Notes under the pieces: model-generated | Told to the model about the DNA's origin: nothing | Database searches by the model: none | The model's input: the letters and a program-made list of their open reading frames with translations, nothing else | NCBI GenBank assembly: GCA_013152545.1 | Contig: JAADGF010000105.1 | Location: 27,950 to 91,949 of the forward strand | DNA length: 64,000 nucleotides | From: Gammaproteobacteria bacterium | Lineage (GTDB): Bacteria > Pseudomonadota > Gammaproteobacteria > SZUA-152 | Direction of reading: 5' to 3' | Position numbers and translations under genes: made by a program | In this document: in pieces, positions 946-40,806 of the stretch | Numbering within the stretch: the stretch's first letter is position 1 | Layout of the letters: each line of letters opens with the position of its first letter

Positions 946-1105
946 GCTCAACCTGCCTTTGATTTGCCCAATCACTGCATTAAAATCTGCATCAAAAGTG
1001 CTCATTTGCATCGAGTAAATCACCGCGCTTCTTTCTTATTCTCGAGCAAATCAAAGGCAATCTGAACAGTTGACTGAGCACTCAAAATCAGGCTCAGTAA
1101 TTACA
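946..1105 (+). repeat. family-1 intergenic repeat, copy A (~160 bp) in the carA-carB spacer
   Basis: Shares gctcaacctgcctttgatttg...aaaagtgctcatt...caaatcaaaggcaatctga...ggctcagtaattaca with 7741..7896, 26666..26826 and 40646..40806. The 5' cctttgatttgc pairs with gcaaatcaaagg about 75 nt downstream. Confidence 0.75.
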
Positions 1106-1363
1106 CTTACTCTTATAATTTTGCTTTTATAATTTTGAATACTGAATACTGAGCACCCCAAATTGAATCCAACATCGCTATCCGACAATCGCGACCATCA
1201 TGAGAAAACGCTATCGATCTCTTTGTTCTCCAGATACCAGGAGCCTGTCCGATGATCTGTTGACCGTTTCATTTTTGTCACCGTTGCACTTGCTTAGACG
1301 GAAAAGACGCCCCAACAGCGATAAAAATGAAACGTCAACAGACCCAGTGTATTCCTAAACATT

Positions 1364-2503
1364 TTAAGCGTTCTGCATTAACGCAATAAAACGATCAAAC
1401 AAAGAAGAAACATCGCGAGGGCCTGGACTGGCCTCCGGATGTCCCTGAAAACCAAATGCGGGACAGTCCCGGTGTGTGATTCCCTGCAATGAACCATCAA
1501 ATAAGGAACGATGGGTTGGCTTAAGGTGCCCAGGCAAACTGGATTCATCCACCGCAAAACCGTGATTTTGGCTGGTAATCATAACCGCATTGGTTGTTAA
1601 ATCCTGAACGGGGTGATTGGCACCGTGATGGCCAAATTTCATTTTACTGGAACGAGCACCGCTGGCCAACCCTAACAGTTGGTGCCCCAGACAAATACCA
1701 AACAAGGGCATTTTTTGATCTAATAACACGTTAATCGCCGCTAACGCATACTCACACGGAGCTGGGTCGCCCGGACCATTCGACAAAAACACGCCATCCG
1801 GCGACATCGCAAACACCTCCTCAACGGCTGTCTGCGCAGGAACCACGGTAACATGACAACCCCGATCCACTAAAATGCGTAATATGTTTCGTTTTACGCC
1901 AAAATCATAAACAACGACCTTGTAATTGTCGTTGGTATCGGTCATTGGTGCCCTCTGGCCTTCTTCCCCCGGTGCCAGCCACATACCTTCCTGCCATCGA
2001 TAAGGTTTTACCGTAGTGACAACTTTGGCGAGATCCATGCCTTTCAACCCAGGGTAGGCTTTGGCCACTTGCAGCGCCGTTGATTCGTCAAGATCCTCCC
2101 CTGCCATTATGCAACCATTCTGCACACCTTTTTCACGCAGCAGACGCGTCAATTGGCGGGTATCGATACCAGCAATGGCAACAACGGATTTCTGTTTCAG
2201 GTAAGCATCCAGTGATTGTTGGCTACGCCAGCTACTGGCTATACAGGGAAGGTCACGGATCACCAATCCGCTTGCCCAAACGTCACTGGATTCTTCGTCT
2301 TCGGTATTAGTGCCCACATTACCAATATGGGGGTAAGTTAGCGTAACAATTTGCTGGCAATAGGATGGGTCGGTCAAAATTTCCTGATAGCCCGTAATCG
2401 CGGTATTAAAAACCACTTCGCCCACTGCCTGCCCATCAACACCGATGGACTCTCCCCGTAAAACAGTGCCATCTTCAAGGGCTAATATCGCCGGTTTCCT
2501 CAA
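1364..2503 (-). CDS. carA: carbamoyl-phosphate synthase small (glutamine amidotransferase) subunit
   Basis: 379 aa, [21 protein letters not shown]...; contains the GATase catalytic-Cys motif GICLGHQLL. Confidence 0.95.
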
Positions 2504-2783
2504 CTAAACCTCCCCTTTTATTTACCTTTTCAGTATTTACATACTTTTTAATACGATGGCAAGGTGGTTTTAGCACCAAACGGCGCCAAAATTTGTCATT
2601 CACACATACAAAGCGGGAGAGACGTATTACGCCTCTCCCGCTTAATTTTCACTCATCGCACATGGAGCGATTTTACTGTAGAAGGTGACAAGGTGTCTAC
2701 GGTCGCGCATCAAATAATAGCCAGTTTGTATGCGCAGGTAATGGAGTTGGTGGAAAATGCAGGTTAATCATCGGGGCACACCG

Positions 2784-3608
2784 CTAATACTTGTGTAATG
2801 CCAATACATCCTGCATATCGAATAAACCTTTTTCATGTTGCATTAACCACTGGGCCGCGCGCACCGCGCCATTAGCAAATGTCATACGACTGGATGCTTT
2901 GTGTGTAATTTCAACACGCTCCCCCTCTCCGGCAAACATAACGGTGTGCTCTCCAACAATATCACCTGCCCGTATTGTTTCAAAACCGATCGTGCCACCA
3001 TCCCTTGGGCCGATTTGACCTTCGCGGCCATAAACGGCGCATTCGGACAAATCCCGGCCTAATGCGTTAGCAACAACGTTTCCCATTGCTAATGCAGTCC
3101 CCGAAGGCGCGTCAACCTTGTGACGATGATGAGCTTCAATGATTTCAATATCAATATCCTCGCTCATGATGCGAGCCGCGATATCAAGTAATTTCAAACA
3201 TAGATTCACTCCAACACTCATATTGGGTGCAAAAACAATAGCGATATCATTTGATGCCTGTCGAATGGCGTCTTTTTGTGCTTCGGACAAACCTGTGGTG
3301 CCAATAACCATGCGACGATTGCTTTGACGGCATAAATTCAGATTTTCCATAGTTGCCTGTGGCACGGTAAAATCGATTAACACGTCAAAATTCTGGGCCA
3401 CGGTGGCAAGATCATCAACCACGTTAATGGCTGGCCCTACCGTAGACAGCTTATCTAAACCCGCAAGTTCTCCGGCATCCACCCCCACCAGGCTACTACC
3501 GGTACGCGCTATGGCAGCTGTTAACTGCACACCGGATAACAAATTGCAGGCTTCAATCAGTCGCCGCCCCATTCTCCCCGCGGCCCCTGTTACTGCTATT
3601 TTTGCCAT
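2784..3608 (-). CDS. dapB: 4-hydroxy-tetrahydrodipicolinate reductase
   Basis: [19 protein letters not shown]... The track ORF extends to 3677, but the ATG at 3608 has an AGGAAG Shine-Dalgarno 6 nt upstream and matches DapB N-termini, so the start is moved in. Confidence 0.9.
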
Positions 3609-3677
3609 TATTCTTCCTGTCCCATCATTATTACTGATCACCACCTCCGTCAGCCAACCCGTGCAGCGATCCAACAA

Positions 3678-39029: not shown

Positions 39030-39032
39030 AGT

Positions 39033-39860
39033 TTAGTCATCGTTATCCTCGCGCCGAGAGTGACTTTTGTTTTGATCAGGTTTCTGCGGATACTCTTGGT
39101 TATAATCCTCTTGGCCATACTTAAGACGCTCCGCTTTGCGTTTACGCAAACCCCATAGCGTATGTATGGGCCCAGACAAGGCATACAGTAGAAACACAAA
39201 AAATAACACTTGTGGCGGGTCAATTGACACAAACACAAAAACCATCACAACAACCAACAGCGAAACAAAAGGCACTTTACCTTTTAAATCAAGATCCTTA
39301 AAACTTCGATAACGTATATTACTCACCATGAGTATCCCAGCGAATAATGTTAGAACAAACGCCAAAACACGCCAATCCGCTCCCTGCTGAGCATAATCGG
39401 AACCGACCCATACCATACCGGCAATCAACGCAGCGGCGGCTGGACTGGCAAGACCTTGAAAAAAATGCTTGTCGGCGATACCAACCTGCGTATTAAAACG
39501 TGCTAGGCGTAATGCCGTACCGGCGACATAAATAAATGCTGCCAACCAACCCAACTTGCCCAAGCTAACCAACGACCATTCATACATTATCAACGCAGGC
39601 GCTAAACCAAATGAAACCATGTCTGCCAAACTATCATATTGCGCGCCAAAATCGCTCTGGGTATTGGTTAAGCGGGCAACACGCCCGTCCAAGCCATCCA
39701 TTATCATCGCTACAAAAATAGCCACCGCAGCCGCTTCAAAGCGATCATCCATCGCCGATACAATGGCGTAAAAGCCAGCAAACAGGCAACCAGTGGTAAA
39801 TAAGTTGGGTAACAGATAAATACCACGACCGCGTTTTTTTTCGGTATCAACAGAAGCCAT
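39033..39860 (-). CDS. pssA: CDP-diacylglycerol--serine O-phosphatidyltransferase (CDP-alcohol phosphatidyltransferase type)
   Basis: 275 aa; multi-TM; D-G..AR....G..D...D motif region (MIMDGLDGRVAR). Confidence 0.88.
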   Translation of the reverse strand: MASVDTEKKRGRGIYLLPNLFTTGCLFAGFYAIVSAMDDRFEAAAVAIFVAMIMDGLDGRVARLTNTQSDFGAQYDSLADMVSFGLAPALIMYEWSLVSLGKLGWLAAFIYVAGTALRLARFNTQVGIADKHFFQGLASPAAAALIAGMVWVGSDYAQQGADWRVLAFVLTLFAGILMVSNIRYRSFKDLDLKGKVPFVSLLVVVMVFVFVSIDPPQVLFFVFLLYALSGPIHTLWGLRKRKAERLKYGQEDYNQEYPQKPDQNKSHSRREDNDD

Positions 39861-39941
39861 TCGTTAATATCTAGTCTCAAACTGTAGAATTAGGATAATA
39901 GCAACTAAACACTGAATACAGCCTGTTGCCACTATAATCGT

Positions 39942-40586
39942 TTAATGCGCACGCACCAAGAGCGCTATAATTGAACTACCACCGGTCAACTCATCCCCCA
40001 CCCTGACTTCCACGTGGGAATTGGCCGGAATATACACTGTTGAATTTGCCCCAAAGGGTATAAACCCACAACGCTGCCCTTGACCGATTCGTTCGCCACT
40101 ATGAACAGAGCACAGTGGCATTTTTTTATAGAACCTGGGGGCTAATGCCAGTATAACATTATCGCCTTCATCACTTTGCACCCACTGTGCAAAATACTCA
40201 TCCGAAACTGGTACTGAGGGTTTAATGTCATTCATGACAGCATTAAACCATTGCTTGTTAACTTTGCCTTCCATCGGGCTTCTAACCGTAAATACTCCCC
40301 AGGCACGGCCTCGCAACTGTATTCGCAAGGTATCGGCTTCCAGGTAAGGATCCATTATTTTTTCGATGGCGACCACGGTGCTATCCATCGGTGCGACGAT
40401 ACCCAACGGAGTGGCTGGTATATCGCGACGAGGATCACGAAACAAAAATAGCAATACGAGTACCACTACCCCAGTAGGTATGGCTACAAAAAAACCAAAA
40501 TAATATTGCAACAAAAATGCCAATAAGACGAAACTAAAGATGGGACTCCAACCTTCTTTAGCAATAAGGGTGTGACGTTGAGGCAT
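39942..40586 (-). CDS. psd: phosphatidylserine decarboxylase (short-form, Psd-related)
   Basis: 214 aa; two N-terminal TM helices; the C-terminal GGSS is consistent with the autocleavage (G-S) site of short-form Psd; adjacent to pssA. Confidence 0.8.
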   Translation of the reverse strand: MPQRHTLIAKEGWSPIFSFVLLAFLLQYYFGFFVAIPTGVVVLVLLFLFRDPRRDIPATPLGIVAPMDSTVVAIEKIMDPYLEADTLRIQLRGRAWGVFTVRSPMEGKVNKQWFNAVMNDIKPSVPVSDEYFAQWVQSDEGDNVILALAPRFYKKMPLCSVHSGERIGQGQRCGFIPFGANSTVYIPANSHVEVRVGDELTGGSSIIALLVRAH

Positions 40587-40645
40587 GGAGGTTGTTAACT
40601 TATAAAAGGTTTGTAACCTATAATTAATTGTAACAATTCAAGCTT

Positions 40646-40806
40646 ACCATTGCTTTGCCTGCCCGATAACGGCGCCAAAAGTGTTTGTTGACACGGCTAA
40701 ACGCCACATATTTTCCAAACAAAACTATCGACAAAAAAACCAAAGGTAATCTAATGCAGCGCATTCACAAATGAACTGAGCAAGTTCAATTAGCTCAAAC
40801 TGTCAG
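40646..40806 (+). repeat. family-1 intergenic repeat, diverged copy D (ilvC-psd spacer)
   Basis: ccaaaagtgtttgttgacacgg...acaaaaaaaccaaaggtaatctaatgcag...actgagca...agctcaaactgtcag matches the cores of copies B and C. Confidence 0.55.

Follow-up and report, generated by a model that had tools for sequence, protein, structure and literature searches.

The 64-kb stretch of contig JAADGF010000105.1 (Gammaproteobacteria bacterium; hereafter, the window) contains four related intergenic repeats located upstream of the carB, dnaK, pgl and psd genes. These repeats are most probably copies of a miniature inverted-repeat transposable element (MITE) that was moved in trans by an IS66-family (ISBst12-like) DDE transposase. 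This interpretation is based on the presence of terminal inverted repeats (TIRs), 8-bp target-site duplications, empty sites in related genomes, a nested insertion, dispersal among unrelated genes, and ends identical to those of IS66-family insertion sequences (ISs). The element shows the features by which MITEs are recognised: it is small and non-coding, has TIRs and a target-site duplication, and is dispersed in multiple copies whose presence at orthologous sites varies. The repeats are ordinary selfish DNA and not regulatory RNA. An earlier description made from the letters of the window (hereafter, the sequence-only reading) proposed either an element resembling a MITE or a repetitive extragenic palindrome (REP), or a leader or antisense RNA. 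The MITE part of this proposal stands, whereas the REP part does not, since the element makes target-site duplications and has no associated Y1 transposase.

Architecture of the element and its copies in the window

The boundaries of the copies were set by the TIRs (Table 1). The four related copies were found again by nhmmer, using a profile made from the copies themselves, with E-values from 4e-36 to 9e-53. The 17-mer AAYCAAAGGYAAYCTRA occurs four times in the window (0.21 occurrences expected). The profile also matches the copies on the reverse strand, which reflects the element's own internal inverted repeat. The places of the four full copies and the sequence blocks reported to be shared by them were thus confirmed, as were the downstream genes: according to Pfam, the flanking pairs are carA/carB, grpE/dnaK, purA/pgl and ilvC/psd for copies 1 to 4, respectively. 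All eight flanking genes are on the minus strand, and copies 1–4 are on the plus strand. The boundaries had to be revised, as the 5' ends had been placed 6–16 bp short and the 3' end of copy 4 had been placed 19 bp too far. The distances to the downstream gene starts, previously given as 85–640 bp, are corrected in Table 1. In addition, two minus-strand copies had been missed (fragment 5 and the split copy 6), so the count of four copies, all on the plus strand, holds for the full copies only.

Table 1. Copies and fragments of the MITE in the window.
Feature	Position	Strand	Location	Distance to downstream gene start	Detection
MITE copy 1	940..1104	+	carA-carB spacer	31 bp upstream of carB ATG at 908	nhmmer and alignments
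MITE copy 2	7726..7896	+	grpE-dnaK spacer	68 bp upstream of dnaK ATG at 7657	nhmmer
MITE copy 3	26652..26823	+	purA-pgl spacer	582 bp from downstream start	nhmmer and TIR search
MITE copy 4	40630..40787	+	ilvC-psd spacer	43 bp upstream of psd ATG at 40586	nhmmer
MITE fragment 5	46376..46420	-	between response-regulator gene and DUF3579 gene		nhmmer (E = 1.8e-4 and 4.7e-6) and TIR search
Older MITE copy 6, right half	26589..26651	-	model positions ~78-130; cut off by copy 3 insertion
Older MITE copy 6, left half	26832..26901	-	model positions ~1-78; left end GTGTCTGTTCAG at 26901-26890

The element is 150–170 bp in length and non-coding, with GTAACTACTCAGC at its start and the inverted counterpart CTGAGTAGTTAC at its end. 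The consensus constructed from the aligned copies reads GTAACTACTCAG CTCACCTTTGATTTG ... CAAAAGTGCTCATTTACACnnGTAAACTCCGCGCTTTTTCC ... CAAATCAAAGGCAATCTGAGCAGTTAC TGTACATTTnAAAATCAGGCTGAGTAGTTAC. Its left end is GTAACTACTCAGCTCACCTTTGATTTG, and the same 27-mer is found internally in inverted orientation as CAAATCAAAGGCAATCTGAGCAGTTAC (inner right end). The second, outer right end CTGAGTAGTTAC is located approximately 35 bp beyond the inner one. Being complementary over 27 bp, the left and inner right ends pair with each other; the long hairpin consists of this pairing and is a by-product of the inverted repeats. The pairing of the 5' block CCTTTGATTTG with CAAATCAAAGG, noted in the sequence-only reading, was confirmed, the second block being located 81–86 nt downstream of the first. 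Individual copies have a length of 150–200 bp and contain no open reading frame (ORF) of at least 100 aa. At L009 2624-2658 and in the orthologous locus L020, the inner right end is directly followed by its own inverted copy (GAGCAGTTACT TAAATAC AGTAACTGCTTAG). The architecture of this tail differs from that of the other copies, and perhaps two elements abut here.

As for the individual copies in the window, copy 1 has the ends GTAACCGCTCAA ... CTCAGTAATTAC and degenerate flanking 8-mers, CTTAATTT (932-939) versus CTTACTCT (1106-1113), which match at 6/8 positions. The ends of copy 4 are GTAACAATTCAAG ... CTGAGCAAGTTC, and its flanking 8-mers, AATTAATT (40622-40629) versus AATTAGCT (40788-40795), also match at 6/8 positions. 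Copy 3 has a perfect GTAACTACTCAGC, read on the minus strand, at its right end, and its target-site duplication AAAACCTG (26644-26651) / AAAACGTG (26824-26831) matches at 7/8 positions. Copy 2 ends with GTTACTACGTAG ... TTAAGTGTTAC, and no recognisable target-site duplication was found in its flanks. Fragment 5 is reduced to the pair of right-end repeats (GTAACGACTCAACCTGATTTTTAAATGTTCAGCAACGGCTC), which are in inverted orientation. Identity to the family consensus is 77%, 67%, 84% and 66% for copies 1 to 4, respectively, and the window copies are 56–72% identical to one another. Judging from the sequence, these values fit old, decaying insertions; with 66–84% identity to the consensus and decayed ends, the window copies would now be immobile fossils. 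Two further TIR-like matches were considered: that at L021 1385 lies inside ispE and was rejected as a chance match, and for that at window position 14441 no tie to the element was established.

Dispersal, empty sites and IS66-like ends

The right-arm pattern of the element was scanned against 185,579 species genomes, and the same pattern was then scanned against the JGI metagenomes. As a result, three true copies were detected among the species genomes, all in gammaproteobacterial metagenome-assembled genomes (MAGs; loci L002, L003 and L005), and 16 metagenome contigs were found, each with a copy. In total, six full, split or fragmentary copies were found in the window, and 19 further copies elsewhere. 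Two hits in deltaproteobacterial MAGs (L001 and L004) proved to be chance matches to the search pattern. The copies outside the window adjoin unrelated genes, and in some spacers just 3–40 bp remain between the element and the genes. The scan of viral contigs for the left end gave no match. A BLAST search of plasmids with the near-consensus copy of L003 yielded just two short, insignificant matches, and the MITE interior was unmatched there.

Some of the copies in other genomes are better preserved at their ends. The copy of L003 has perfect 12-bp TIRs (GTAACTACTCAG / CTGAGTAGTTAC) and a perfect 8-bp duplication, ATTTTTTG. L015 carries TATTTATT on both flanks, which is also a perfect 8-bp duplication, and L005 carries ATAATGA. 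For 13 independent copies, the mean match of cognate 8-mer flanks was 6.15/8 versus 5.21/8 for non-cognate flanks (permutation p = 5e-5), and none of the 156 non-cognate flank pairs matched at 8/8 positions.

The orientation bias suggested in the sequence-only reading was not borne out. Four copies in the window are on the plus strand and two (fragment 5 and the split copy 6) on the minus strand (binomial p = 0.69), and outside the window the element is opposite to the flanking genes at approximately 11 loci and has the same orientation at three. A rule of orientation relative to genes or strand was therefore rejected.

The nearest relatives identified through the protein database (loci L022, L025, L029 and L030) encode GrpE proteins 74% and 70% identical and DnaK 95% identical to those of the window. 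Some homologues bear the name 'Kaarinaea lacus', which is a cyanobacterial name and was given no taxonomic weight. They keep the gene orders hrcA-grpE-dnaK-dnaJ-dsrE-dapB-carA-carB and ilvBNC-psd-pssA-leuA, and the search with the element model across 99 kb of their contigs found no copy. The element is absent at three of the four orthologous spacers in both relatives. The carA-carB spacer of L022 and L025 lacks it, with the gene-proximal parts conserved, and so does the grpE-dnaK spacer, in which conservation extends ~55 bp from the grpE stop and covers the last ~60 bp ahead of the dnaK start. The ilvC-psd spacer has a length of 129 and 169 bp in L029 and L030 versus 313 bp in the window, and the flanks align on both sides, which gives a clean empty site. 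A GC-rich hairpin, GGGGTGGTGTTGTCGTTTTGACATCACCC (minus strand, window 40804-40836), is located just after ilvC in this spacer and is conserved in L029 and L030; it is probably the ilvC terminator. MITE copy 4 is inserted ~16 bp downstream of this hairpin.

The fourth spacer, purA-pgl, is a synteny breakpoint, and an empty-site comparison is impossible there for this reason: in L037 and L038, pgl is preceded by a gene of 800–812 aa and not by purA (histidine-kinase/response-regulator domains are on record for the L037 gene only). This spacer of the window provides evidence of another kind. Copy 3 is flanked on either side by weak reverse-strand matches, which represent the halves of an older inverted copy and score just 13.5 and 12.5 bits separately. 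When positions 26652-26831 (copy 3 and one 8-mer) were removed in silico, the halves merged into one colinear match of 126 positions (model 5-130) with a score of 35.3 bits. The duplicated 8-mer AAAACCTG/AAAACGTG corresponds to an A-rich run of the older copy. According to these sequence matches, copy 3 landed within an older copy of opposite orientation. The spacer as a whole (26070-26943, 874 bp) consists of the nested MITE pair and ~520 bp of other sequence (26070-26588).

The ends of the element point to the probable source of the transposase. Ends starting with GTAA and 8-bp repeats are traits of the IS66 family (PMC11946415), and ISDge4 (IS66 family, ISBst12 group) has the ends GTGACTACTCAGCA / GTAACTGCTCAGCA and an 8-bp direct repeat (PMC12898284). 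The MITE shows both of these sequence-level traits, namely, 5'-GTAA ends (GTAACTACTCAGC) and an 8-bp target-site duplication. The IS of Geobacillus plasmid pHTA426 encodes one protein of 485 aa with the DDE_Tnp_IS66 (E = 1.9e-64), zf-IS66 and DUF6444 domains, and its inverted repeats contain GTAACTATTCAGCCC. A tblastn search retrieved homologous elements from plasmids of B. thuringiensis, Bradyrhizobium, Octadecabacter and Chlorohelix. Direct reading of the ends of five such single-ORF elements, including that of Geobacillus, showed GTA(A/T)C...GTTAC termini in all of them, and each of the five has a perfect 8-bp duplication (AATTTATC, TGCATATC, TGTTTTTA, TTCAATTT and GACGAGTT). Both ends of the B. 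thuringiensis element read GTAACTACTCAGCTT, which matches the MITE end exactly over 15 nt.

The ISs of the ISBst12 group (ISBst12, ISDge4, and those of Geobacillus pHTA426 and B. thuringiensis pBMB0231) thus share with the MITE the termini 5'-GTAACT(A/G)CTCAGC ... GCTGAG(T/C)AGTTAC-3' and a target-site duplication of 8 bp. They differ from it in being ~1.6 kb in length and encoding a DDE_Tnp_IS66 transposase of 450–490 aa, whereas the MITE has 150–170 bp and no ORF. The interiors of the two show no detectable similarity, and the extra internal copy of the right end is peculiar to the MITE. According to the proposed mechanism, a single-ORF ISBst12-like IS66 transposase would recognise the GTAACTNCTCAGC termini and insert the MITE into AT-rich intergenic DNA, duplicating 8 bp of the target.

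The same ends bear on another possible explanation, in which the repeats are REP/REPIN-type palindromes spread by a REP-associated tyrosine (Y1/HUH) transposase (RAYT). The hairpin formed from two inverted repeats with a third repeat copy nearby would agree with this, as would the GTAG contained in the end CTGAGTAGTTAC. A Y1_Tnp gene is also present in the relative L025 (630-1484; 284 aa, IS200/IS605 or RAYT type), but L025 has no element copy, near this gene or elsewhere on the contigs searched, and no Y1 gene is found among the scanned ORFs of the window. The element shares its ends with DDE-type ISs of the IS66 family, and 8-bp target-site duplications are present; Y1/HUH transposition is not known to make such duplications. 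Spread by a Y1 transposase is therefore considered extremely unlikely.

RNA structure, transcription and points against the proposed IS66-type MITE

The suggestion that the repeats act as a structured cis-regulatory leader RNA or a small RNA family, whose long hairpin controls carB, dnaK, pgl and psd, was assessed by folding, covariation and promoter analyses. The four full copies are each located upstream of a same-strand gene, and in three copies the minus strand (gene sense) folds more stably than the plus strand; both points favour this suggestion. Compared with shuffled sequences, the z-scores of folding for the gene-sense strand were -5.6, -1.5, -0.9 and +0.5 for copies 1 to 4, respectively. 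Copy 1 agrees with this suggestion, but copies 2–4 fold no better than shuffles. Rfam 15 searched over the whole window at the gathering score matched only a tRNA, and no match was found around copy 3 (26000-27000) even at E <= 1.

In the consensus structure predicted by RNAalifold, a stem of 10 bp, covariation contributes 0.02 kcal/mol. In the full rod-like structure, 80.4% of cells pair versus 78.1% in shuffled data, and double changes occur in 13 pairs versus 9.2 expected, in a test biased by the right arm being fixed by the search pattern. This level of pairing and double changes is within the range of unconstrained related sequences. The compensatory changes reported in the sequence-only reading are accordingly weak, and the two changes of copy 4 give a C-C mismatch.

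A sigma-32-like motif, CTTGAAA-N12-CCCCTACG, is located at window positions 7993-7967 (minus strand), where it overlaps the grpE stop; it is conserved in L022 and L025. Judging by its sequence, this motif may be the sigma-32 promoter of dnaK, in which case the dnaK 5' untranslated region would include the entire 331-bp spacer. The position of copy 2 downstream of this conserved motif would agree with a leader function. In the two spacers scanned for sigma-70 promoters, no signal exceeded the shuffle expectation. A single terminator site was predicted versus 0.2 expected, namely, a small terminator-like hairpin in copy 2 (7789-7803).

Against a leader function, the same spacers of the relatives lack the element, and elsewhere it adjoins unrelated genes and is oriented either way; it also has the ends of a transposon, 8-bp duplications and a nested copy. 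The few covarying pairs described below are a further point in favour of a leader. Thus, the leader or small RNA interpretation is already largely refuted and appears very unlikely.

A further possibility is that copies born as MITEs have since been co-opted, with the hairpin in the carAB, grpE-dnaK and ilvC-psd transcripts acting as a processing or stability signal, by analogy with RNase III on Correia and RNase E on ERIC elements. Hairpin-dependent RNase effects are known for both of these families and provide a precedent (PMC10969869). The placement between co-directional genes makes transcription likely, and the hairpin of copy 1 (-61 kcal/mol) would suit such a role. In the plus orientation the element has a short hairpin followed by a T-run, and that of copy 2 is the one flagged as terminator-like. 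At the same time, the extra folding stability is largely gone from three of the four copies, the mutual identity of the copies is as under neutral decay, and the relatives manage without the element at the same sites. Co-option would therefore be quite improbable.

For the MITE as such, transcription of the copies between co-directional genes is probable. Copy 1 would be transcribed within the carAB transcript, and copy 2, downstream of the sigma-32-like promoter, would probably be part of the dnaK leader as a passenger. An effect of the copies on mRNA processing is possible, by analogy with other repeats; the copies are probably passengers.

Several observations weigh against the derivation of the repeats from an IS66-mobilised MITE. 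The duplications in the window are degenerate (6/8, 6/8, 7/8 and none), and the clean duplications come mostly from other genomes and the nested copy. No IS66-family transposase was found with tblastn in the 64-kb window or in loci L001-L028, where only the query's source locus matched, and the likeness to the reference ISs is limited to the terminal 13–15 nt. On the MITE reading, such a transposase would exist or have existed in this lineage. The relatives are fairly distant, and for copies 1 and 2, whose central spacers are unaligned, a deletion in both relatives may have occurred. Finally, alignment columns 26/250, 89/122 and 95/104 covary, with 4/500 shuffles reaching the observed score, and some structural constraint is possible.

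Comparison with known repeats and implications

The window contains a second, unrelated repeat family of ~130 bp, with copies at 28341-28475, 38901-39029 and 46449-46581 (all on the minus strand) and a partial inverted copy at 38847-38910. It is also found in another MAG (L005/L013 7924-8030). Its two full copies share 92% identity across 84 nt. The copies start at or overlap the stop codons of a tRNA-synt_His-domain gene, pssA and a response regulator gene, and this family may be another MITE or a terminator-carrying repeat.

A 1-kb non-coding gap is located at 14450-15340 between fur and an ORF of 497 aa (malQ-like by eye). Short ORF fragments in this gap resemble the decayed remains of a DDE transposase (DDE_Tnp_1_4, with a sub-threshold E = 0.021). 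The gap coincides with a gene-order break, since bamE follows fur in L022 and L025. Between the response regulator and DUF3579 genes, L029 (4119-4463) and L030 (3995-4339) have a MIF-family gene, which is absent from the window (46110-46565); this region holds instead MITE fragment 5 and a copy of the second repeat family. The sequence comparison suggests that the MIF gene was lost by a deletion linked to the repeats. Repeats or transposon remnants are thus found at three gene-order differences from the relatives (fur/malQ, purA/pgl and the lost MIF gene), which hints that mobile elements shaped this region. In addition, an ORF of 465 aa (55375-56772) belongs to no Pfam family above the threshold, with weak hints of Mbeg1-like and lipase class 3 domains (E ~0.01-0.02).

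Among the known repeats, the Correia elements of Neisseria (CREE/NEMIS) resemble this MITE in their length of 100–200 bp, inverted repeats of ~26–27 bp, and location in intergenic spacers, where they adjoin and are co-transcribed with housekeeping genes and form long mRNA hairpins (PMC10969869). The sequences of the two are unrelated, and Correia elements have documented promoter, IHF-site and RNase III functions. The target duplication of Correia elements is TA, versus 8 bp for this MITE. ERIC, an imperfect palindrome of ~127 bp, is likewise transcribed, intergenic, present in Gammaproteobacteria in either orientation and patchy at orthologous sites (PMC10969869). ERIC is unrelated in sequence and has no assigned parent IS, whereas this MITE has IS66-type ends and 8-bp duplications. 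REP/REPIN sequences with RAYT are also short, intergenic and hairpin-forming, with units in alternating orientation; this MITE is unlike them in its target-site duplications, DDE-type IS ends and the lack of an associated Y1 transposase.

A 2024 review of prokaryotic MITEs makes no mention of IS66. The link of a MITE to the IS66 family may be new, although the biology is ordinary. It appears rather unlikely that this is the first described IS66-derived (ISBst12-like) MITE family, in an uncultured, probably sulfur-oxidising gammaproteobacterial lineage, with some copies possibly co-opted as hairpin processing or stability signals (dnaK leader, carA-carB spacer).

In annotation, the ~160-bp blocks are to be masked as MITE copies and not taken for riboswitches, small RNAs or leaders. 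Their presence or absence at defined sites is useful for telling related MAGs apart. Through its ends, the family connects a MITE with the single-ORF IS66 group, and it serves as a marker that an IS66-type transposase was once active in an uncultured lineage of Gammaproteobacteria.

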